This document shows, one piece after another, positions 1 through 48,591 of a stretch of DNA of 48,591 nucleotides. The notes under the pieces were generated by a model. That model had not been told where the DNA came from. It saw only the letters and a program-made list of their open reading frames with translations, and did no database searches. Every line of letters begins with the position of its first letter. Position 1 is the first letter of the stretch. A program made the position numbers and the translations under genes. The DNA comes from a virus, in the UHGV virus genome UHGV-0185643; one strand, written 5' to 3'.

Positions 1-774
1 ATGTCATCAGAAAATTTTGTCACCTTCTGGCTCGCTAGAGCCGATCTTCCATACTTTCTTGAACCTCATGAATTTTACGTTTCGGAGGCCAAGCGTAGAC
101 TTCTATCGCAGTTTGGCGATTTAGAACAAGAAGCAGAAAGGAGGGAACAACAGTATTTGGAAGCTACCTCAAAATATTTCGATCCTGATAACGATGATCC
201 AATGGCTGCCTACGAGCAAGCCTACCACGTGGGAATTAATTATGTATGGTCGCTTCTGGAGATGCAAAATACCGTGTTGTTGGCATTAACGGCAGGAATG
301 TACCACCAGTTTGATAAAAAACTAAGAGAACACACCATCAAAGAACTAAGTAACTGGTGCAAAAGAGAATTAATTACTCCCATGATCTGGAATATAACTT
401 TCCATCAGCTTATTGATTTACTCGAATGGATTGGCCTCAAAATCAATGGAACCGGATACGGAGAGAGGATCAAAGCCTGTAACTTGGTAGTAAACGTATA
501 CAAGCATGGGGACGGGCCTGCGCATCAAACACTATCATTCAATCATCCTGAGTACTATCAACACCCTACCGATGTTCGAGGTACGCAGAACATACATGAC
601 CATGATGATTTACATGTATCAGAAGAGCAATTTGTAGAGTTTGCTGACGCAATAACTGAATTCTGGAAAGCAGTTCCAGAGAATTGCTATTACTCAGATC
701 TCAAAGAAGAACCCAAATGGTTGAGTAAAGTCGTAACAAAATTCGATAAAAAACAGAAGGGAAATAGGGACTAA
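1..774 (+). CDS. Hypothetical protein (257 aa), AT-rich cargo-like gene; may be 5'-truncated by the window edge
   Basis: ORF begins with ATG at position 1 and runs to a stop at 772-774; no motif I recognise. Confidence 0.4.
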   Translation: MSSENFVTFWLARADLPYFLEPHEFYVSEAKRRLLSQFGDLEQEAERREQQYLEATSKYFDPDNDDPMAAYEQAYHVGINYVWSLLEMQNTVLLALTAGMYHQFDKKLREHTIKELSNWCKRELITPMIWNITFHQLIDLLEWIGLKINGTGYGERIKACNLVVNVYKHGDGPAHQTLSFNHPEYYQHPTDVRGTQNIHDHDDLHVSEEQFVEFADAITEFWKAVPENCYYSDLKEEPKWLSKVVTKFDKKQKGNRD

Positions 775-882
775 TTACCCATCTCAAAACATCAAGTTTG
801 CAGTGCCCTGCTCCCCGTTTATTAGTATGGAAGTTAACAATGTCTGCTTCTGACACATAACAGCCCTTAAGATGGTAACTCG

Positions 883-932
883 CCGTCATGGGGTGTCGGG
901 GGTCGGAGGTTCAAATCCTCTCGTGCCGACCA
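883..932 (+). tRNA. Partial tRNA-Pro-like sequence (anticodon loop with GGG, T-arm GGAGG-TTCAAAT-CCTCT, acceptor 3' strand CGTGCCG, discriminator A, CCA); 5' half degenerate or absent, so a pseudo-tRNA or att-site remnant
   Basis: Cloverleaf 3' half folds by eye and matches tRNA-Pro T-arm and acceptor sequences recalled from E. coli; upstream sequence does not form a D-arm or acceptor 5' strand. Confidence 0.6.
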
Positions 933-945
933 AAAATCCTCGAAG

Positions 946-972
946 AACCAGCCTGTTACGGCTGGTTTTTTT
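946..972 (+). terminator. Rho-independent terminator following the tRNA-Pro fragment
   Basis: Stem AACCAGCC / GGCTGGTT with 6-nt loop followed by a T7 run. Confidence 0.7.
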
Positions 973-1062
973 ATGCCTGTTTTCTGAACGGGGAAGCAAC
1001 GGGGAATAATTGGGGAAAAACCCCGACACAAAACATCGACTTTACCGTAAAGTTTCAGCTAT

Positions 1063-1452
1063 TCACATCACTGGGCAGTCATCAAACTCCGCGTTCCTGG
1101 CATCATTAATGATGTACGTGATAACACCAAATATTGCGTGTGAAGAATTATAGCCATCACCGTCTTCTGGCAGCACTTCTCTTCTCCCGTTCTCCAGATT
1201 TATCAGGTGGGGCTGAGGGTGAGTTCGGTATCGCTTGATCCTGAATTCCCCATCTATCGCGCATATCAGCAGCGAGCCATCACAGGCTGAAAGCGACGCG
1301 TCCACAACAAGTAGTGCCCCCTGGATTATCCCTTCCCTGAAATGTGAACACGATGCCCGCATGAAATAAGTCGCTGCGGGCTGGCTGATTAGCTGTTGAT
1401 CGAGGGAAATCCTTGTTTCAACGTAATCACTGGCAGGTGAAGGGAAGCCCAT
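1063..1452 (-). CDS. UmuD'/HumD-like S24 peptidase-fold protein starting directly at the GFPSPA motif (no N-terminal arm, no cleavage site)
   Basis: Translation MGFPSPASDYVE...DGEFRIKRY aligns by eye to UmuD from its post-cleavage residue; longer ORF 1063..1551 trimmed to the internal Met because the upstream ORF stops at 1455; no umuC follows. Confidence 0.7.
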   Translation of the reverse strand: MGFPSPASDYVETRISLDQQLISQPAATYFMRASCSHFREGIIQGALLVVDASLSACDGSLLICAIDGEFRIKRYRTHPQPHLINLENGRREVLPEDGDGYNSSHAIFGVITYIINDARNAEFDDCPVM

Positions 1453-1454
1453 GG

Positions 1455-1694
1455 CTATAGTCCTCCGTTTGGATTGAAAAGCTGAAAGGTACGGTTCTCC
1501 CCTTCCTGCGTTGATACATCGCGGAATGATGTCACATACCACTCGATCCATTCGTTAGCCTGCTTCATCGTCCAGTTCCAGTTAACCTTGCTCAGTTCCT
1601 GGACAAACCGCTGTGTGGTGACGGTCTTCCGGCCATTAGGTTCTTGCTGTATCGAAGCATGCCAGGCCATTTCAATATCGCTGCGTCGTGGCAT
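1455..1694 (-). CDS. Hypothetical small protein (79 aa) immediately upstream of, and probably co-transcribed with, the UmuD'-like gene
   Basis: ORF with ATG at 1694 preceded by GAGGGG Shine-Dalgarno at 7-nt spacing; stop 3 nt before the UmuD'-like start. Confidence 0.45.
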   Translation of the reverse strand: MPRRSDIEMAWHASIQQEPNGRKTVTTQRFVQELSKVNWNWTMKQANEWIEWYVTSFRDVSTQEGENRTFQLFNPNGGL

Positions 1695-1736
1695 CAATTA
1701 ACCCCTCTTGAATACCGGATAAAAACACAGTATAAA

Positions 1737-1756
1737 TACTGTATATCCATCCAGTA
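1737..1756. promoter_or_regulatory. Candidate LexA (SOS) box TACTGTATATCCATCCAGTA in the divergent promoter region between the small-ORF/UmuD'-like operon and the DinI-family gene
   Basis: CTGT-N8-CCAG with flanking TA/TA, the same variant I recall for the E. coli dinI operator; lies 17 bp upstream of the 1773 start codon. Confidence 0.6.
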
Positions 1757-1772
1757 AAGATGACTACAAGAA

Positions 1773-2015
1773 ATGTTCGTGGAACTCGTTTATGACAAAA
1801 GGAATTTTGATGGGCTGCCTGGTGCAAAAGATATCATTCTGGGCGAATTGACCAAGAGGGTTCACCGGATCTTCCCCGATGCTGATGTTCGGGTTAAACC
1901 GATGATGACACTGCCGGCGATCAACACTGACGCCAGCAAGCATGAGAAGGAACAGATAAGCCGTACTGTTCAGGAAATGTTTGAAGAAGCTGATATGTGG
2001 CTGGTTTCAGATTAA
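1773..2015 (+). CDS. DinI-family protein (80 aa)
   Basis: Length and C-terminal motif EKEQISRTVQEMFEEADMWLVSD resemble DinI (…QRISEILQETWESADDWF…); preceded by an SOS-box-like site. Confidence 0.65.
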   Translation: MFVELVYDKRNFDGLPGAKDIILGELTKRVHRIFPDADVRVKPMMTLPAINTDASKHEKEQISRTVQEMFEEADMWLVSD

Positions 2016-11011: not shown

Positions 11012-12625
11012 ATGAATATTGTGCATTATGCAGCCATTGGAGCTGTAGCTTTCGTAGTTGTTCTAACAATTTTGGTGATAAACATCATTAAATTAAAGTC
11101 AGCCAAGGCTGATGCAGCAGAAAAGGCGGCAAAACTTGAGCGTTACGCGTCAATCACCAATGCTGAAACAGAAGCTGAACGAATCGTGAATGCAGCTAAG
11201 CAAACCGCAGAAGAGTTAATTATTGATTCGCAGAATAACCTTGACGAGGCAAAAGCTGAAGCAGCCAACACTATTGCAGCCAGTGAAAAAGATGCAAGAT
11301 CTATAACACAGCGTGCGGAGGATATTCTATCAGATGCGCGTTTAGCAGCTAAGCGAATGAACGCAGAGGCGCTGACCGCTGTAGAAACACAAAGAGTCAA
11401 GCGTGCAGAAATTGAAAAACAGATTGATGAATTGCGTAAATCCTATCGTGAGAAAAAAATCACTTACGATGAGCTGACGGAAGCCCTGTCAATTTATAAA
11501 GATGATATGGAATTTGCTGACATGGGGTTCTATGCACCACACTTCGATTTTGATACCTCGGCTAGTTTTCAGGATGCGATCAAGGCATGTCGCGAACGGC
11601 AAAAAAATCTGCTACGTGACAAAACTGAATTTGGCGCAATACATTGCCCTACTGAATGGACGGTTGGCGGCTCTAAAAGTGAAGGTCGGAAAATGACCAC
11701 TCGCGGCATTCAGATGACAGCACGTGCATTCAATGGTGAGTGTGATGCAGCTATTGCAAACTGCACATTTAAAAACGTTTATCAAATGGAGCAAAGAATT
11801 TATAAAGCCTTTGATGCCTTGAATAAGATGAATGAGGTTAACCAGATTTACATCAATCGTGCTTTTTTAGATTTGAAGCTGGATGAACTTCGACTTACAC
11901 ATGAATATCGTTTGAAAAAACAAGAAGAACGAGAAGAACAACGTGAAATCCGCGCTCAGATGGCTGAGGAGAAGCGAGCTCAAGCCGAAATTGATCGTGC
12001 ACTTCGAGAGGCTGAAGATGAAGAACGCCGCGCCCAAAAAGCGTTGGATAAAGCCCGAAAAGAAATGGAATCGAAGCTAGCCCAAATGACAGCTGAGCAA
12101 GTTGAGAAACACCAAGCGAAGGTATCCGAATTAGAACATGCCTTAGAAGAGGCATTGTTGAAAGGCCAAAAAGCTCTTTCTATGGCTCAACAAACTAAAC
12201 GCGGCCACGTGTACGTTATCTCTAATATTGGTTCGTTTGGTGATGATGTTTTTAAAATAGGAATGACACGTCGACTTGACCCTCAAGATCGAGTGGATGA
12301 ACTGGGTAGTGCATCAGTCCCATTCCTGTTCGATGTTCATGCAATGATTTTCAGTGAAGATGCACCAACAATGGAAAACATGCTCCACCAGCGTTTCAAT
12401 GAGCAACGCACTAACCTAGTTAATAAGCGTAAAGAGTTTTTCAATGTAAAATTAAGCGATATCAAAGATGCTGTGTTTGAGATCGCAGGTAAAGATGTAG
12501 ATTTTATCGAAACAGCAACTGCTCAGCATTATTATGAAACAAAGGCAATTCGTAAGCAGAAAGCGGATATCATTTCAGTTGTTCCTCAAGAGGAAAAACT
12601 ACCTAAATTTGCGGACGCAATATAA
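11012..12625 (+). CDS. Membrane-anchored coiled-coil protein (537 aa) with C-terminal T5orf172/GIY-YIG-like (MUG113-type) domain; candidate defence or exclusion effector
   Basis: N-terminal hydrophobic helix IGAVAFVVVLTILVINII; long charged heptad-like segments; C-terminal GHVYVISNIGSFGDDVFKIGMTRRLDPQDRVDEL...EFFNV motif; AGGGA RBS; transcribed against the tail operon; AT-rich. Confidence 0.6.
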   Translation: MNIVHYAAIGAVAFVVVLTILVINIIKLKSAKADAAEKAAKLERYASITNAETEAERIVNAAKQTAEELIIDSQNNLDEAKAEAANTIAASEKDARSITQRAEDILSDARLAAKRMNAEALTAVETQRVKRAEIEKQIDELRKSYREKKITYDELTEALSIYKDDMEFADMGFYAPHFDFDTSASFQDAIKACRERQKNLLRDKTEFGAIHCPTEWTVGGSKSEGRKMTTRGIQMTARAFNGECDAAIANCTFKNVYQMEQRIYKAFDALNKMNEVNQIYINRAFLDLKLDELRLTHEYRLKKQEEREEQREIRAQMAEEKRAQAEIDRALREAEDEERRAQKALDKARKEMESKLAQMTAEQVEKHQAKVSELEHALEEALLKGQKALSMAQQTKRGHVYVISNIGSFGDDVFKIGMTRRLDPQDRVDELGSASVPFLFDVHAMIFSEDAPTMENMLHQRFNEQRTNLVNKRKEFFNVKLSDIKDAVFEIAGKDVDFIETATAQHYYETKAIRKQKADIISVVPQEEKLPKFADAI

Positions 12626-34942: not shown

Positions 34943-35164
34943 TCAATTTTTAGAAGTCATCTCCCTTACAACTTCCATGATGGTTTCTTTGGACCAGTAC
35001 AATTCATCTCTGGATAATTTTCTGTTAGTTACAGAACCGGCCTTGGCTGAAAGGATGTAGCGTTCATCCGCTGCAAGTCCGAAAGACAAAAGCTCCCGAC
35101 CTTTCCCATCGGTTATGATCACCCGTAAATTATCAGCAAGATCTGATTGGGCTATATCTGCCAC
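34943..35164 (-). CDS. Hypothetical protein (73 aa)
   Basis: ORF only. Confidence 0.35.
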   Translation of the reverse strand: MADIAQSDLADNLRVIITDGKGRELLSFGLAADERYILSAKAGSVTNRKLSRDELYWSKETIMEVVREMTSKN

Positions 35165-35273
35165 TTAATCCCCCTGAGCGACATACAGACGCGATTAAAG
35201 AATGTCGGCAGCAGCATCAAAGGGATACACATTTTGGTATTCTGATAAATGCGCGCCAGCCTTAAGCGCAATT

Positions 35274-35507
35274 CTAATAAAACCAGTCGTCAGCGCTTTC
35301 CCAGGTATCCTGGAGGATTGATTCAATTTTCTTTTTATCGTCCTTGTCACCGCCAAAAACACTTAACCCATCCGACCCGGCACGGCGGATTGTGAGCCTG
35401 CAATTGTCATAGTGATCATTCAGGCGCTTAAGCAATTCTTTCTCCAGTGCAGGAACCGCGCCTTTAGGAAGTTCTTTCATACGATCAATGGTTAATTCAA
35501 CTTTCAT
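35274..35507 (-). CDS. DinI-family protein (second paralogue)
   Basis: MKVELTIDR...KKKIESILQDTWESADDWFY closely resembles the DinI C-terminus; perfect LexA box upstream. Confidence 0.75.
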   Translation of the reverse strand: MKVELTIDRMKELPKGAVPALEKELLKRLNDHYDNCRLTIRRAGSDGLSVFGGDKDDKKKIESILQDTWESADDWFY

Positions 35508-35525
35508 AATGGCCTCCAATGCATA

Positions 35526-35545
35526 TACTGTGTTTTTATACAGTA
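35526..35545. promoter_or_regulatory. LexA (SOS) box TACTGTGTTTTTATACAGTA upstream of the DinI-like gene
   Basis: Perfect CTGT-N8-ACAG palindrome with TA flanks, 19 bp upstream of the start codon. Confidence 0.7.
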
Positions 35546-40380: not shown

Positions 40381-40486
40381 ATGCAACCCTCGGATATTGA
40401 AATTCAAGATTACAACATGAAAAAAATATTTTCAATCCTGAATGAAAATAATCTTTGCAATGCGGAATGAAAGGCTACCTTGTAGA

Positions 40487-40906
40487 ATGGAAGACATGAA
40501 AAAAGCACCCAACGAAGCGTTTGCCTACCGACTTCAGCTCGTCAGAGATGAGTTCGGTTGGAACATGTCAGATATAGCCCGGAGAGCGATGGTTACTCCC
40601 CAGGCAGTGCAGCAATGGGCCAAAGGAGAGTCAGCTCCAAGAGGTGAGCGCTTAAAGCGTCTCGCTGCAGCTGCTGGAAAGCCCGAACATTGGTTTTTCA
40701 TGCCACCAAATACCGAAGGTGAAGATGCTGGGGTGCATGAGCCACCGCGGCAACTGGATGAAAAAGAAATCGCACTGCTTACGTTGTTCAATCAAATGCC
40801 AGAAGCTGAAAAGCTACGTTTGATAGTGCATGCCAAGGCTACCTTGAGAGAGCTTGATCTCCTCAAAGATGATGTGTCTAGCATCATTCAAAGTATTCAG
40901 AAGTAA
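40487..40906 (+). CDS. Prophage repressor, XRE-type HTH, no S24 peptidase domain
   Basis: HTH MSDIARRAMVTPQAVQQWAKGE; about 140 aa; start uncertain (40442, 40487 or 40496). Confidence 0.6.
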   Translation: MEDMKKAPNEAFAYRLQLVRDEFGWNMSDIARRAMVTPQAVQQWAKGESAPRGERLKRLAAAAGKPEHWFFMPPNTEGEDAGVHEPPRQLDEKEIALLTLFNQMPEAEKLRLIVHAKATLRELDLLKDDVSSIIQSIQK

Positions 40907-41805: not shown

Positions 41806-44736
41806 ATGGAATTTCCATATGTAGTTAAAGCCACACAAAAGTCGGGAAAGCCTGATGCTTTTGTCTGGTTCACTGCAAAAACTGAGGCTCGCGCCAACCT
41901 GATGCTGGACGTTGCTCTGGAAGACGCTGGCATCGAAACCGGCCGTGGTAAGGACTACGCCAAGCCTATCCGCACTGACTTCCCAGTTGTTGATGACCTT
42001 CCGGAAGAAGGTGAAGTTGATTTCACCTGGTGTGATCGTTACGAACTGCAGGACGACGGGCGCATCTGGCTGCCAAAGGCCGCTGGCGACGTTGTCACCA
42101 CTATCCCTGCCGATGTAAAAAATACCGATGAAGTAGCGACATCTGACGAGAATGTATCGTTAGAAAACCGCACTCCAGCAGTCCGTTTTGCCTTCCATCT
42201 GATGAGCGATAAATACCAGACTCACGTCACTAAAGAGCAGCAGCTGGCTGCCAGCGAAATGTCACTGGACGAAAGCAATACCTATCTCCAGAACTTGCTG
42301 CAGGTTAAAAATGATGTTCCTGAAATTGGCGAACTCAGTCTGAATGCTGAGTGGAAAATGATTCAGGCGATTAAAGACATCTTCGAACAGGGTGAAGAGC
42401 ATGAACCTGAAGTGATCGCTGCTTTCATGTCTGACTGGGTGAACGCAGAAGCAGGTGATCGCAATCAACTGGTTGAAGACTGGCGCAGTGGAAAGTTTCC
42501 TCTGCTCAAAACTGAAACCACCAGCGTTGGTGATGAAGTCGGTCCCGAAGAACAATCTCAGCAGCCAGAGCAGCCGAACCTGATCGTCGTAGCCACCCTG
42601 CCATTCCGTCAGCGCGTACTGGCTCAGTTCATCGGTAATGGTGAATATCTCTATCACGTCGATGCCGCGCAGAAAAAAGAGATTGTCCGCCTTGAGATGG
42701 ACACTGATGACACGTACATCCAGAACCTGCTGCTGGCTGCTGAGAATGTGGAGGCATTCAAAAAAGCCATTGAGCACGATATTCATAAAGTCGTGAATGC
42801 CGTTAAGAAAGTCTTCCCTGTCGACGGTAAGAAACCGGAGCTGGCAACAGTTATCCAGTTCCTGACGGTGTGGTTCAAAACTGAATACATCGATCGCGGC
42901 CTGCTGGTCAAGGAATGGCAGAAAGGCAATCGTGTAACAACCATTAATCGCACACCTTCAGGTGCGAACGCCGGCGGCGGCATTGTCTCTGACCGAAAAT
43001 TCCCGCAAACCATTCTCGGTCTGGAGCATGAGATTGCTCTGGCGTTACGTGCCCGTGACCGCGAATTTGATATTTACAACGTCCCTCTGGATATAGAACT
43101 ACAGGCAAACTCCATCATGAATAAGATGGACGATCCCGAATGGCTGGCGACTCGAGAGAGATTCGTTTCAATTCCTGGTGGCCTGGACTACTCACGTGCC
43201 TGCATCATCGCAACAGTAAAAACCACACCAGAGGGGCTTTATGCTGATCCTGTAAAACACCAAGAATATTTGAATAGAGTACTTACGGAAACCGACCACG
43301 CCAACCCAGATCCATTGCTCGTTGATATAGCCTGCGGTCGTTCGTCTATGCCTGTACCTATGAAACAGGAAAAAGTAACGGCCGAAGAGGTAAACAAAAT
43401 TCTTGCAGCTTCCCGCGGAGAATATGTCGAGGGGATTAGTGACCCTACAGACCCGAAATGGATCACAGAAGACCTCGCATTAACCGCCCAACAAATAGAT
43501 GACCGTTCACCACTTAATAAGGAAACCACCAGCAATGTGCAGATGGAAGAAACTGTCAGTGATGAAGAGCAGTCAGGCGAAAGCAGTCTGGAAACTGGTG
43601 AAGAGTCACATACCGGCCAGCAAGCCGATGTAAACCAGAATGCGGATTCTGTCGCCCAAAATAGCGATTTTGTAAACCAAACCGAACCGGTTGCGGCACA
43701 AATCAAGCCAGAATCTCATTCTGACGAACCGGCTGTTGTGTACCCTGCTTACTTTGAGCCAGGCCGCTATGAAGGATTGTCGAACGAGGTTTATCACGCA
43801 GCGAACGGTATCAGCTCAACCCAGGTGAAAGACGCACGTGTCAGCCTGATGTTCTATCACGGCCGTCACGTGACCAAGACTATCCGTCGCGAAAGCAGCG
43901 AGGCGCTGACGTTAGGTAGCCTGGCGCACACCCTGGCCCTGGAGCCCGAAAAGCTCCACGAAGAGTTTGCGGTATTCCCAGGTATTCCGGCTGAGGCGTT
44001 TACCACCACCGACTCCATGAAGGCGTTCATTCGAGAATTTAACGCGGATAAGCCAAAGGCCGAGCAACTGAAGCTCACCGGTAAGAAAGAAGAACTTCAG
44101 GCGGCGATACGCGCGGTCAGCCCGGAGGCCATTTTCGCTGATGAATTTGAGCAGCAATGGCGTGATAGCGTTGATGGGAAAACCATCCTGTCCAGAGAAC
44201 AACTGACGCTGGCCACGGCAATTCAGCAAGCCCTACTGAATCATGAATCAGCCGGGAAACTGCTGCGCCATCCTTCCCGTTCAGTGGAAACCAGTTATTT
44301 CGGGATGGACGACGAAACCGGTCTGGAAGTCCGTGTGCGCCCTGACCTTGAGGTTGAAATCAACGGCGTTCGTATCGGTGTTGACCTGAAGACGATCAGC
44401 ATGGGACGCGTTAAGCAAGACGGTTTGCGCGCCAAACTGCACCGGGAAATCATCGACCGCGACTACCACCTCAGCGCTGGCATGTATTGCTCCGTTGCCG
44501 ACTTTGATCAGTTCTTCTGGATCTTCGTCAACAAAGACGAGGGCTACCACTGGGTGGCGGTAATTGAGGCATCGGAAGATTTGCTCGACCTCGGGCTGCT
44601 GGAGTATCAGCGCACCATGCGTGCACTCGCAAATGCGTATGACACCGATTGCTGGTCTGCACCGATAACCGAAGACTACACCGACGAACTGAACGACTTC
44701 GACCTGCGCTGCCTTGAAGCGCTGCGTCTGGCTTAA
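41806..44736 (+). CDS. recE: RecE-like exonuclease VIII (976 aa)
   Basis: Large protein immediately upstream of a RecT-like gene; acidic linker; C-terminal nuclease-like region; GAGGA RBS. Confidence 0.65.
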   Translation: MEFPYVVKATQKSGKPDAFVWFTAKTEARANLMLDVALEDAGIETGRGKDYAKPIRTDFPVVDDLPEEGEVDFTWCDRYELQDDGRIWLPKAAGDVVTTIPADVKNTDEVATSDENVSLENRTPAVRFAFHLMSDKYQTHVTKEQQLAASEMSLDESNTYLQNLLQVKNDVPEIGELSLNAEWKMIQAIKDIFEQGEEHEPEVIAAFMSDWVNAEAGDRNQLVEDWRSGKFPLLKTETTSVGDEVGPEEQSQQPEQPNLIVVATLPFRQRVLAQFIGNGEYLYHVDAAQKKEIVRLEMDTDDTYIQNLLLAAENVEAFKKAIEHDIHKVVNAVKKVFPVDGKKPELATVIQFLTVWFKTEYIDRGLLVKEWQKGNRVTTINRTPSGANAGGGIVSDRKFPQTILGLEHEIALALRARDREFDIYNVPLDIELQANSIMNKMDDPEWLATRERFVSIPGGLDYSRACIIATVKTTPEGLYADPVKHQEYLNRVLTETDHANPDPLLVDIACGRSSMPVPMKQEKVTAEEVNKILAASRGEYVEGISDPTDPKWITEDLALTAQQIDDRSPLNKETTSNVQMEETVSDEEQSGESSLETGEESHTGQQADVNQNADSVAQNSDFVNQTEPVAAQIKPESHSDEPAVVYPAYFEPGRYEGLSNEVYHAANGISSTQVKDARVSLMFYHGRHVTKTIRRESSEALTLGSLAHTLALEPEKLHEEFAVFPGIPAEAFTTTDSMKAFIREFNADKPKAEQLKLTGKKEELQAAIRAVSPEAIFADEFEQQWRDSVDGKTILSREQLTLATAIQQALLNHESAGKLLRHPSRSVETSYFGMDDETGLEVRVRPDLEVEINGVRIGVDLKTISMGRVKQDGLRAKLHREIIDRDYHLSAGMYCSVADFDQFFWIFVNKDEGYHWVAVIEASEDLLDLGLLEYQRTMRALANAYDTDCWSAPITEDYTDELNDFDLRCLEALRLA

Positions 44737-44750
44737 TGGAGGATTTGACC

Positions 44751-45791
44751 ATGCAAAATACCAACATCATTACGACCGAGCAGGCACCAAACACCATTTC
44801 CGCCAGCAACGCTGTGTTCAACGTGCAGGCACTCGGCCAGCTTACCTCTTTTGCTGAATTGATGGCGCAGTCTGTCGTCACCGTCCCCAAACACCTTGCG
44901 GGGAAACCCGCCGACTGTATGGCTATCGTCATGCAGGCTATGCAGTGGGGAATGAACCCATATGCAGTTGCCCAGAAAACACACCTGGTCAACGGTGTGC
45001 TGGGTTACGAAGCGCAGCTGGTTAACGCAGTGATCTCCAGTTCCAGCGCCATTATTGGCCGCTTCCATTACGAGTACGGCGGTGACTGGGAGAAGATCGC
45101 CGGGAAAAAAGACGGTCGTGATGAATTAGGTCTGTTTATCCGGGTTGGCGCCGTACTGCGCGGAGAAGAAGAAATTACCTGGGGCGAGCCAATCTACCTG
45201 GCAGATATCACCATACGTAACTCGCCACTGTGGAAAACAGCGCCGAAGCAGCAGATCGCTTATCTGGCAGTGAAGTACTGGGCTCGCCTGTACTGCCCAG
45301 AAGTCATCCTCGGCGTCTACAGTCCAGATGAAGTTGAGCCACGCACTGAGAAAGAGATTAACCCGGCGCCGCAACGCGTTAGCCTGGCCGATATTTCAGG
45401 TGACACCGTCACAACCACGCAAAGCGCACAGGAATCGTCGGTAAATATCGACTCTCTTGCCGATGATTTCCGCGAACGAATCGATGCCGCTCAGGATGTT
45501 GATAGTGCAAAAGCACTGCGCGCTGATATCGAAAGCGCGAAGGCCACACTCGGATCAGCCCTGTTCACCGAGCTGAAGAATAAGGCAGTGAAACGCTATT
45601 ACCTGGTTGATTCACGTAACAAGGTTGAGGCCGCGATCAACTCCCTGCCGTCTCCGGACGAACCGGATGCAGCTGAACGGTTTGGGGAAGTTGAGCGAGT
45701 TCTTGCAACTGCGAAACGTCATCTGGGCGACGAGCTGCACGATCAGTTCAGCATCACCCTGGCGGATATGAAACCGGAATACGTTGGCTAA
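44751..45791 (+). CDS. recT: RecT-family single-strand annealing recombinase
   Basis: Coupled to the recE stop (TAATG overlap; GGAGG SD before ATG at 44751); RecT-like core. Confidence 0.65.
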   Translation: MQNTNIITTEQAPNTISASNAVFNVQALGQLTSFAELMAQSVVTVPKHLAGKPADCMAIVMQAMQWGMNPYAVAQKTHLVNGVLGYEAQLVNAVISSSSAIIGRFHYEYGGDWEKIAGKKDGRDELGLFIRVGAVLRGEEEITWGEPIYLADITIRNSPLWKTAPKQQIAYLAVKYWARLYCPEVILGVYSPDEVEPRTEKEINPAPQRVSLADISGDTVTTTQSAQESSVNIDSLADDFRERIDAAQDVDSAKALRADIESAKATLGSALFTELKNKAVKRYYLVDSRNKVEAAINSLPSPDEPDAAERFGEVERVLATAKRHLGDELHDQFSITLADMKPEYVG

Positions 45792-46118: not shown

Positions 46119-46319
46119 ATGGATGATATTTTGCTGACGTCAGACCTGACCAGTCGATACAAAATCTCACGTAAAACCCTTTGGTCATGGCAAAGCACAG
46201 ACACGATGCCGCGGGGTTTTGCGAAGCCGTTCCCCGCCCCGGACTTCCCCGGTAACCCTAACCGCTGGAAGTCGGAGTCAGTCAAAGAGTGGGAAGGTGT
46301 GAAACAGCCAATTAACTGA
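46119..46319 (+). CDS. AlpA-family excisionase / transcriptional regulator
   Basis: Motif [20 protein letters not shown]; adjacent to the integrase gene; GGAGA RBS. Confidence 0.7.
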
Positions 46320-47505
46320 ACGGCTCACCGATGATGTTTTCAAGATGGCTCTGCCAAACGTGGAGCCAGTGTTTTTGATCATCGATGTAGTCATGCAGGT
46401 TATAGTGCGCCATCACGCCAACCATTTGGTGACCAAGTAACTTTTCAATCACATGCGGCGGACAGCCAAGTTCTGAAAGATTTGTTGCGATTGTTCTTCT
46501 CATATCATGGAGAGACCAGGGCTCCATGCCGGATTCTGACCAAATATACCTGGCGTAGTTCGAAGCAACTGGCGGATGAACCGGGACGTCTTTAATTTCC
46601 CCATCCAATAAGCGCTGTGAAGTGACTAAATGCTTTGTGTTGATCTTCTCAAGATGATTTTTTACCAGTCCCACCGCAGCATCAGAAAGAGCCCTTCTCA
46701 TGTGCACTCGCGTTTTGTAACTTCCAGCAGGAACTATCCATTCATTTTCATCCAGCTTGAACCATGACCTTTCGCTTAACCGAATCTCTGCCGTCCTACA
46801 GCCGGTCAACATAATAAATTTCACAAGAAACACGGACTCTATGGACATGCGGTTTTGCAGCCACCGATAAATAGCCACCAGCTCACGATCATCCAAGCGC
46901 CGCGTTCTCTTTTTCGGTTTTTGGCCAACGTCAGTGGGTAGCAATCCCTCGAGCGGATTGGTCGATATTACGCCTCGGTTAATACAGAACCTGAATGAGC
47001 GTTTGCACAGCGAAAGCATATAATGAGCCATCACCCTGCTTTCAATCTGATCAAAAACATCTATCCAGTGCCTTTTTGTCGAATTGTCGACTTTGACGTT
47101 TCGCATCGGTTCGGCGATATGCTTGGCAAATACCAACTGATAATAACCTGTCTTTGTCAGTTGATTAGCGATGCAGTGTTTCTCGATCCAATAATTGAAT
47201 GCTTCCGATACGGCCATGGAACCTTCGCGGGTCAATTTCTCCAGCTTTACTTGCTCTCGGGGATCGAGTCCTTCAGTAAGCCAGATTCTGAATTGCTGAC
47301 GCCTTTCCCTTGCCTGAGCAATACTCATTGCTGGATAATCGCCGACATTGAGTTTTACAGCTTTGCCTGCCCATCTGTACCGGTAGAAGAAAGAGACCTT
47401 TCCGGCCAGACTGATTCTTGCGTTGAGTCCGTGAGAATCTGAAATAATTTCGATATCATCGCGTTTCTTGCCAAGGGCCTTCCTGAGCTTTGTGTCAGTG
47501 ATCAT
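46312..47505 (-). CDS. int: Tyrosine integrase (P4/CP4-57-like, N-terminal arm-binding domain)
   Basis: N-terminal [10 protein letters not shown]...FFYRYRW arm-binding-type domain; C-terminal catalytic motifs HDMRRT ... LGHQ ... HY; start trimmed to an internal Met. Confidence 0.85.
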
Positions 47506-47731
47506 TGAATAGGTACACATTTGGCTTTTGAGTACGCAAAAGTGTACACAAAACTCATTGCTCAAAGATACCCACAATGTAACACTTGTACTCGGAGTGT
47601 GATAATTGGAAGGCTGAAAGGCAGGCGGCAGAAGGGTTCAACGTAACAGAACGTTTTTATGCGAAATTCTTCGAAATGGGCTGAATGACAATACAAAAAA
47701 GTATTTTAAAAACAAAACAAAAACAGACATT

Positions 47732-48075: not shown

Positions 48076-48591
48076 ATGACAACCTTCTACACCGTGGTGA
48101 GTTGGCTGGTCATTCTGGGTTACTGGGTACTCATTGCTGGCGTAACATTACGCATTCTAATGAAACGACGCGCAGTGCCCTCCGCAATGGCCTGGCTTTT
48201 GATCATCTATATTCTGCCATTGGTAGGGATCATTGCTTATCTGTCCTTCGGTGAGCTCCACCTGGGTAAACGCCGCGCCGAACGCGCCCGGGCAATGTGG
48301 CCGTCAACGGCCAAGTGGCTGAACGATCTTAAAGCCTGTAAGCATATTTTTGCGCAGGAAAACAGCAGCGTCGCCTCCTCCTTATTTAAACTGTGCGAGC
48401 GTCGTCAAGGAATCGCCGGCGTTAAGGGAAATCAGCTGCAGCTGCTCACCAGTTCAGATGACGTGATGCAGGCGCTGATCCGTGATATTCAACTGGCGCG
48501 CCACAACATAGAGATGGTGTTCTACATCTGGCAGCCGGGTGGTATGGCCGATCAGGTAGCCGAGTCGTTAATGGCTGGCGCGGGGGGGGGG
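48076..48591 (+). CDS. clsA: Cardiolipin synthase A, N-terminal part (host gene, truncated by window end)
   Basis: [55 protein letters not shown]... is near-identical to enterobacterial ClsA N-terminus. Confidence 0.9.

Follow-up and report, generated by a model that had tools for sequence, protein, structure and literature searches.

A divergent prophage cargo module pairing a pre-truncated HumD with a DinI-family gene across a predicted LexA operator

Positions 1063-2015 of the virus genome UHGV-0185643, a stretch of 48,591 nucleotides that is referred to below as the window, hold three genes and one intergenic control region, as read from the sequence: a humD-family gene that encodes a UmuD' homologue, a small gene upstream of it (orf79) and a divergently oriented gene of the DinI family. 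This is a prophage cargo module of an already catalogued kind, situated at the tail-fibre/attachment-site (att) end of a Gifsy/lambda-like prophage from a Salmonella/Citrobacter-type host; an initial annotation of this DNA had read it correctly, and the present work adds little that is new to that reading. We consider it likely that the region works as a LexA-repressed divergent SOS cargo ('moron') module, from which an orphan HumD and a DinI paralogue are released upon the SOS response. Its features are as follows.

1063-1452, minus strand: humD-family gene, 129 amino acids, a UmuD' homologue without the arm (NCBIfam NF051876, identity to P1 HumD, match to 1UMU)
1462-1466, minus strand: GGAGG Shine-Dalgarno sequence of humD, inside the last orf79 codons (read from the sequence; the ...NPNGGL end of orf79 with its stop is conserved in orthologues)
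1455-1694, minus strand: orf79, 79 amino acids, predicted winged-helix fold, first gene of the leftward operon
1702-1707, minus strand: GAGGGG Shine-Dalgarno sequence of orf79, 7 nucleotides before the ATG at 1694 (read from the sequence)
1708-1736, plus strand: predicted rightward promoter of the DinI-family gene (found by eye)
1713-1732, no strand: degenerate LexA box 2, TACCGGATAAAAACACAGTA, with CTG changed to CCG (one-mismatch hit)
1729-1758, minus strand: predicted leftward sigma-70 promoter of orf79-humD (promoter scan)
1737-1756, no strand: LexA box 1, TACTGTATATCCATCCAGTA, 16 nucleotides upstream of the DinI-family ATG (exact TACTG-N10-CAGTA)
1773-2015, plus strand: DinI-family (MsgA-like) gene, 80 amino acids (Pfam PF06183)

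The humD-like protein has 129 residues (MGFPSPASDY... to ...EFDDCPVM), and its ORF begins MGFPSPASDYVE. It matches the NCBIfam HumD equivalog NF051876 over profile positions 1-129 of 129 with 223.3 bits against a cut-off of 120, and scores below the cut-off of the NCBIfam UmuD subfamily model. The alignment to UmuD and HumD that the initial annotation had proposed as a check gives a full-length match, with 69.8% identity over residues 1-129 to HumD of P1, P7 and related plasmid prophages; the UmuD-like proteins of HK140, HK639, phiKO2, N15 and BTP1 are 62-70% identical to it. The identical protein, from Salmonella enterica, has already been deposited at NCBI, and the name given by PGAP is 'HumD family translesion DNA polymerase'. 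In HMMER alignments, residue 2 of the protein stands opposite residue 1 in the UmuD' structure 1UMU (E = 1e-22), and Gly2 stands opposite Gly25 of full-length UmuD (8GMT_B). HumD is thus made in the post-cleavage form from the outset, which bears out the earlier proposal that it starts exactly at the residue following the cleavage site.

Judging from the aligned sequences, this truncated start is a feature of the HumD family. A MAFFT alignment with UmuD' comprised 102 homologues of 124-131 residues, all of which start with Met, followed by Gly in all except one (101/102). Many loci have an in-frame stop 0-7 codons upstream of the humD ATG, and in those devoid of orf79 only a few codons separate the MGFPSPA start from the LexA box or from an in-frame stop. 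A longer reading of 162 residues exists in the humD frame and overlaps orf79 out of frame. Among 11 orthologues of orf79, substitutions at codon positions 3, 1 and 2 number 2533, 1295 and 1022, and in the last 34 orf79 codons, which underlie the 162-residue reading, the corresponding numbers are 1094, 492 and 361; this third-position excess shows that the stretch is translated as orf79, with purifying selection acting as far as the stop. The initial annotation would have been overturned by an in-frame fusion of the upstream gene into a full-length UmuD. Instead, the frame of orf79 is not that of humD and is closed by a stop codon, and on these grounds, together with the third-position excess, we rejected it as the missing N-terminus of UmuD.

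What remains of the peptidase in this protein appears to be fold rather than function. Absence of the Ser/Lys dyad region had been named as another finding that would contradict the initial annotation; the dyad residues are present (Ser36 and Lys73), in the company of a GDSM motif that is degenerate. The column of UmuD' Lys97, which corresponds to Lys73, has Lys in 100 of the 102 MAFFT-aligned sequences, and the Ser60 column has Ser in 73, Thr in 28 and Ala in one. In the same alignment [R/C/A]-[S/T]-H-[F/Y]-R-E stands in the place of GDSM, and one residue is deleted; HMMER alone sets the His against Ser60. With the cleavage site and the arm missing and the motif degenerate, the protein falls outside the self-cleaving S24 peptidases of the LexA/UmuD/CI type. 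Its S24 fold is kept, its protease activity is probably vestigial, and the dyad looks like a relic, not an active site, as would be expected of a protein with nothing left to cleave. The C-terminal tail NDARxxEFDDCPVM (HumD residues 116-129; 1063-1107, minus strand) is near-invariant, specific to the HumD family and missing from UmuD/UmuD'.

As the initial annotation had stated, no umuC adjoins humD: tblastn of the whole window with two IMS-family proteins returned no UmuC/IMS-family sequence, the best hit (E = 0.12) being noise. Nor was umuC found beside humD in any enterobacterial locus examined. Some of these loci have a long same-strand open reading frame (ORF) just downstream of humD, and the ones that were tested against Pfam proved unrelated (MFS, LepA, cation efflux). 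An IMS-family gene was found downstream only in distant non-enterobacterial relatives, 34-44% identical. Five such loci, from Sumerlaeia, a Proteobacteria metagenome-assembled genome, Chitinophagaceae and Niastella (L071, L076, L077, L079 and L082), have UmuD' homologues with an MGFPSPA start followed by an IMS-family (UmuC-like) gene. Their sequences suggest that UmuD' made without the arm also occurs beyond the HumD clade, there together with a polymerase of its own; the sample of MGFPSPA-start homologues is biased, as the genome scan pattern included the initial Met.

The divergent gene encodes an 80-residue protein that matches Pfam PF06183 with 75.5 bits (gathering threshold 24.2) and is assigned to phrog_189, 'RecA filament binding protein DinI'. 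It also matches the DinI structure 1GHH (E = 1.5e-7), the acidic C-terminal helix ...EEADMWLVSD included. Its score against the equivalog of chromosomal DinI, NF007893, is 41.8 bits, below the cut-off of 111, and its relatives have source labels such as 'virulence protein' or a comparison to msgA; by these sequence comparisons it is an MsgA-like or prophage paralogue. Linkage of dinI to humD is limited to close relatives (Citrobacter, Kluyvera, Klebsiella, Pseudocitrobacter and one Enterobacter), and most humD loci have no dinI alongside.

The 78-bp spacer between orf79 and the DinI-family gene contains TACTGTATATCCATCCAGTA, across which the two transcription units diverge, as the initial annotation had described. 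This box 1, when scored as had been suggested there, matches TACTG(TA)5CAGTA at 17 of 20 positions and has the invariant CTG-N10-CAG. It had been called a 'dinI-type' operator; that it is a strong canonical SOS box stands, and 'dinI-type' is no formal class. Exact TACTG-N10-CAGTA sites occur twice in the 48.6 kb (1737-1756 and 35526-35545), both times upstream of a DinI-family gene, and any CTG-N10-CAG site matching at least 16 of 20 positions appeared in 2 of 300 shuffles of the window. The heterology index of box 1 is ~1.8, comparable with the strongest operators, and that of box 2 ~7.1, both figures being rough, as they were computed against an informal list of Escherichia coli SOS boxes. 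The box occupies the same position, in identical or near-identical form, in eight related loci (L005-L008, L010, L011, L021 and L032). More generally, in almost every complete locus among the 80 species-level loci, a strong box lies ~35 bp upstream of humD, or of orf79 if present, and P1, N15, phiKO2 and HK140 likewise carry a strong box upstream of humD/orf79.

Both predicted promoters meet at this box. The leftward one has a -35 TTTACT (1758-1753), an 18-nucleotide spacer and a -10 TATACT (1734-1729), and box 1 spans its -35 hexamer and spacer. The rightward one, with a -35 TTGAAT (1708-1713), a 17-nucleotide spacer and a -10 TATAAA (1731-1736) that abuts box 1, was not listed by the scan because of the A at the end of its -10 hexamer; its conservation extends to orthologous intergenic regions. 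This placement implies that one LexA dimer would obstruct both promoters, and together with the conservation of the box it strongly supports repression of both via box 1. Box 2 lies 24 bp from box 1 and is one base short of a box; in L010, L011, L021 and L032, among loci from Kluyvera, Citrobacter murliniae and Pseudocitrobacter, an intact box, TACTGTGTTTTTATCCAGTA, occupies its position. In Salmonella, DNA damage switches on msgA and the dinI homologues of prophages, genes with boxes 14-19 nucleotides from the ATG (PMC8072944), and the box of the Gifsy dinI gene is required for its LexA-dependent control (PMC3121763).

From this arrangement we infer LexA binding, SOS induction, a partnership of HumD with UmuC and an effect of the DinI paralogue on RecA. 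In a lysogen, host LexA bound to box 1, which covers the leftward -35 and spacer and the start region of the rightward promoter, would shut both promoters at once. Upon DNA damage, activated RecA would promote the self-cleavage of LexA and both promoters would fire. The leftward transcript would yield orf79 and then, by closely coupled translation, HumD; being made without the 24-residue N-terminal arm, HumD would need no RecA-mediated cleavage and could pair directly with host UmuC to give a translesion activity similar to that of DNA polymerase V, as for P1 HumD. McLenigan et al. (1999, J Bacteriol 181:7005) reportedly found that P1 HumD takes the place of UmuD', binding UmuC and activated RecA and restoring SOS mutagenesis; P1 HumD is the only family member for which this is known. 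From the rightward transcript a protein of the DinI/MsgA family would be made, which would bind to RecA filaments and adjust their activity as a co-protease. Such SOS-controlled modulation of mutagenesis or of RecA, which the initial annotation had suggested, is the standard inference for this family.

Several points weigh against this picture. P1 HumD is said to be poorly expressed and to complement well only from a high-copy plasmid, so that the physiological benefit of the family is reportedly unsettled. The window protein is 70% identical, not identical, to the P1 protein that was tested. A resident host umuC is assumed, as the window holds no host genome. The role of orf79 is left without explanation, and, with box 2 degenerate in the window, repression may be leakier than in the relatives that have two intact boxes.

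The module might instead serve RecA-filament modulation and not mutagenesis, with HumD and the DinI paralogue both occupying activated filaments. This would damp or reshape the SOS response, limit recombination, or alter the cleavage of LexA, UmuD or a co-resident repressor, in favour of the prophage during induction. HumD, too, is said to bind RecA, according to the same 1999 work, and dinI and humD are co-regulated from one operator. That DinI is a RecA-filament binder is indicated by the phrog_189 label and by the references in PMC3121763, and the second LexA-controlled DinI gene of the window, in its Gifsy-type operon, shows an investment in SOS tuning. However, the many humD loci devoid of an adjacent dinI indicate that the two genes do not need each other, and when the Gifsy dinI homologues were removed by non-polar deletion, induction did not change significantly (PMC3121763). 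We regard filament modulation as a possible but rather improbable main purpose, and favour release of an orphan HumD and a DinI paralogue as SOS cargo. The locus neatly illustrates the way in which temperate phages connect their cargo to the SOS response of the host, and it supports the automatic annotation of the HumD family, the DinI family and the LexA box. If lysogens received from the phage a UmuD' that needs no activation, their mutagenesis after DNA damage could increase, with consequences for how antibiotic resistance evolves in Salmonella and Citrobacter; this idea goes back to the 1999 study of P1 HumD.

The sole uncharacterised part of the module is orf79. As had been noted initially, this 79-residue ORF precedes humD in the same orientation (1455-1694, minus strand). 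It is counted here from the ATG at 1694, and a TTG one codon earlier is another possible start. Its TAG stop lies 2 nucleotides before the humD ATG, and the GGAGG, in its last codons, lies 9 nucleotides from that ATG; this spacing suggests that translation of the two genes is closely coupled. The protein has no Pfam or NCBIfam match and is assigned to phrog_3893, of unknown function; its exact sequence is found in a third-party annotation Caudoviricetes record. Clustering of the family gives 40 groups at 90% identity and, at 50%, 174 representatives, almost all being stand-alone proteins of ~79 residues, and a ...STQEGENRTFxLFNPNGGL segment is near-invariant among close relatives. The AlphaFold2 model (predicted local distance difference test score 84.6) has the a1-b1-a2-a3-b2-b3 topology of a winged helix. 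A profile search gave weak multi-repeat matches to eukaryote-type HA-domain proteins, which were judged uninformative. By its conservation in sequence, orf79 is a real gene.

Wherever orf79 is present in the loci examined it stands directly upstream of humD, and it is present in only ~33 of the 80 species-level loci. Genes for humD that are ~91% identical occur with orf79 (the window, L005 and L006) or without it (L007 and L008), and in L007 and L008 the same cassette of promoter, operator and Shine-Dalgarno sequence directly precedes humD. By this pattern, orf79 is a dispensable inserted gene and not an obligate subunit of HumD; its product is an optional small protein with a predicted winged helix, probably a protein-binding accessory. 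More specifically, orf79 could be an accessory induced in the SOS response and dedicated to the orphan HumD, supplying the function of the UmuD arm in trans (partner, clamp or protease targeting, for example) or directing HumD-UmuC to phage DNA. Adjacency and translational coupling to humD in ~33 of 80 loci, the near-invariant C-terminal segment and the lack of known relatives are the basis for this suggestion, which we hold to be unlikely as it stands. If it were true, orf79, HumD and the DinI paralogue would form a three-part phage toolkit for rewiring host translesion synthesis. The one question that the present locus makes accessible to testing is what this small winged-helix protein, so frequently encoded ahead of humD, contributes.

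Less likely still are two other readings of orf79. It might be an antirepressor or an anti-defence factor, induced in the SOS response, that has nothing but the promoter in common with humD. Small size, control by LexA and a location away from the immunity region are traits that it shares with GfoA/GftA, Tum and AntC (PMC3121763), and the surface of its winged helix looks non-basic. On the other hand, it always lies directly upstream of humD in the loci examined, whatever the phage type, the prophage already carries a dinI-antirepressor operon, and orf79 has no sequence similarity to the Gifsy-type antirepressor candidate of the window, so that we consider this reading quite improbable. Identity of orf79 with a Gifsy-type antirepressor was rejected on the same lack of similarity, and identity with P1 Lxr on the absence of a P1 hit and because lxr encodes 190 residues on the other strand.

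The other reading, which we find very hard to credit, takes orf79 and humD as the parts of a split LexA-like or UmuD-like protein, with the winged helix as its N-terminal domain and HumD as its post-cleavage S24 domain, the two acting as one unit, such as a DNA-binding regulator. The predicted fold of orf79 and the start of HumD exactly at the post-cleavage Gly fit this idea, as do recurrent frameshift alleles that join orf79 in frame to HumD (P0041/P0042, P0194, P0232 and P0261). In addition, the orf79 tail TFQLFNPNGGL resembles TFPLFSDLVQC, which we take to be the sequence of the UmuD arm, at the same offset from GFPSPA. Against it stands the dispensability of orf79 noted above. The TFxLF tail was rejected as a UmuD-arm homologue or clamp motif, as it is not conserved in distant family members. 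The fusions themselves are sporadic: their fusion points differ between lineages, and the alternative frame, open for just 3-43 codons depending on the locus, is not conserved as open, for which reasons a programmed frameshift from orf79 into HumD was rejected as well. P0041/P0042 is a widespread Salmonella enterica allele with a 2-nucleotide deletion in ...GAGAACCGTACC... (clusters of 427 and 112 member sequences), and it is because of such fusion alleles that the 79-residue protein goes by the names 'LexA family transcriptional regulator', 'S24 family peptidase, frameshifted' and 'DNA polymerase V'.

Comparison with known systems places the module among several relatives. P1 HumD has the same length of 129 residues, the same MGFPSPA start, no arm and no cognate umuC, and in P1 a LexA site is annotated in the regulatory region between lxr and humD, with the box ~20 nucleotides upstream of the humD ATG. 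Unlike the window, P1 is a plasmid prophage with humD beside phd-doc, its divergent partner is lxr (190 residues) and not a DinI-family gene, and no orf79 homologue was found in P1. In phiKO2, according to the GenBank record, gp22 (DinI) and gp23 (UmuD-like) flank an annotated LexA site with overlapping divergent promoters, and the DinI/UmuD'-like pair lies downstream of tail genes; gp23 and N15 gene 26 are 66-67% identical to the HumD of the window. There is, however, no orf79 between operator and humD in phiKO2, both phages are linear-plasmid prophages, and N15 is also devoid of an adjacent dinI. HK140 has gp26 (DinI), gp27 (hypothetical, the orf79 homologue) and gp28 (UmuD-like) in the same order and orientation and at the same genomic position, between tail fibre and att and adjoining attP, whereas its orf79 homologue is 39% identical and its intergenic region is different, with a single box, TACTGTATTCATATACAGTC. 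E. coli genomes, Nissle 1917 included, carry the module at ~90% DNA identity, under the PGAP names 'HumD family translesion DNA polymerase' or 'S24 family peptidase' and 'DinI family protein'.

E. coli UmuD/UmuD' and the plasmid-borne impCAB operon share the S24-family fold and LexA-controlled expression with the module, and impCAB also associates a UmuD-like gene with a small DinI-family gene; impC was reportedly placed upstream of impA by Lodwick in 1990, and ImpC is presumably a DinI homologue. UmuD and ImpA are precursors that are cleaved via activated RecA and co-transcribed with umuC or impB, whereas in the window HumD the arm is absent, GDSM is degenerate, the tail NDARxxEFDDCPVM is HumD-specific and there is no polymerase gene. 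The Gifsy dinI-antirepressor operon (Lemire et al. 2011, PMC3121763) is similar in having a prophage DinI-family gene with a LexA box 16-19 nucleotides from its ATG; it differs in lying in the nin region, in triggering induction and in having no UmuD-like gene, while the module at 1063-2015 lies at the att end.

A layout that matches this Gifsy-type LexA-controlled operon (Lemire et al. 2011, PMC3121763) is found elsewhere in the window, at 34943-35545 on the minus strand. It begins with the second perfect LexA box, TACTGTGTTTTTATACAGTA (35526-35545), 18 nucleotides upstream of the second DinI-family gene (35274-35507, minus strand; Pfam DinI, 90.6 bits), which is followed by a 73-residue ORF with a GTG start (34943-35164); a terminator-like hairpin precedes that ORF's upstream neighbour, the DinI gene. 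The candidate prophage repressor (40442-40906, plus strand; 154 residues) has an HTH_3 domain only and no S24 peptidase domain, which fits induction mediated by an antirepressor and not by self-cleavage.

At the humD end, the module is flanked by a phrog_19541 protein of unknown function on one side and a tail-fibre protein with an S74 chaperone domain on the other. Between the first of these and humD, positions ~873-974 (plus strand) are ~89% identical to the 3' part of E. coli tRNA-Pro and its terminator, with matches in all 5426 complete E. coli genomes. ARAGORN found no intact tRNA at ~873-974, and tRNA and Rfam scans of 700-2200 gave no matches. The segment probably represents what is left of an att site, immediately outside the prophage at its humD end, while the integrase end abuts cls; a direct-repeat search for att sites gave no convincing pair. 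Beyond the tRNA-Pro fragment lies the phrog_19541 ORF itself (1-774, plus strand; 257 residues, no Pfam match), near-identical copies of which occur in E. coli, Citrobacter, Klebsiella, Yersinia and Morganella. At the opposite end, RecE/RecT-type genes (41806-45791) and the integrase gene (46312-47577) adjoin host cls, inside which the window ends in a G run, gcgggggggggg (48580-48591), probably an assembly or sequencing artefact at the contig end. Within the tail-gene block, on the opposite strand, a 537-residue protein with DUF4041 and T5orf172/MUG113 (GIY-YIG-like) domains (11012-12625, plus strand) may be another cargo or defence gene.

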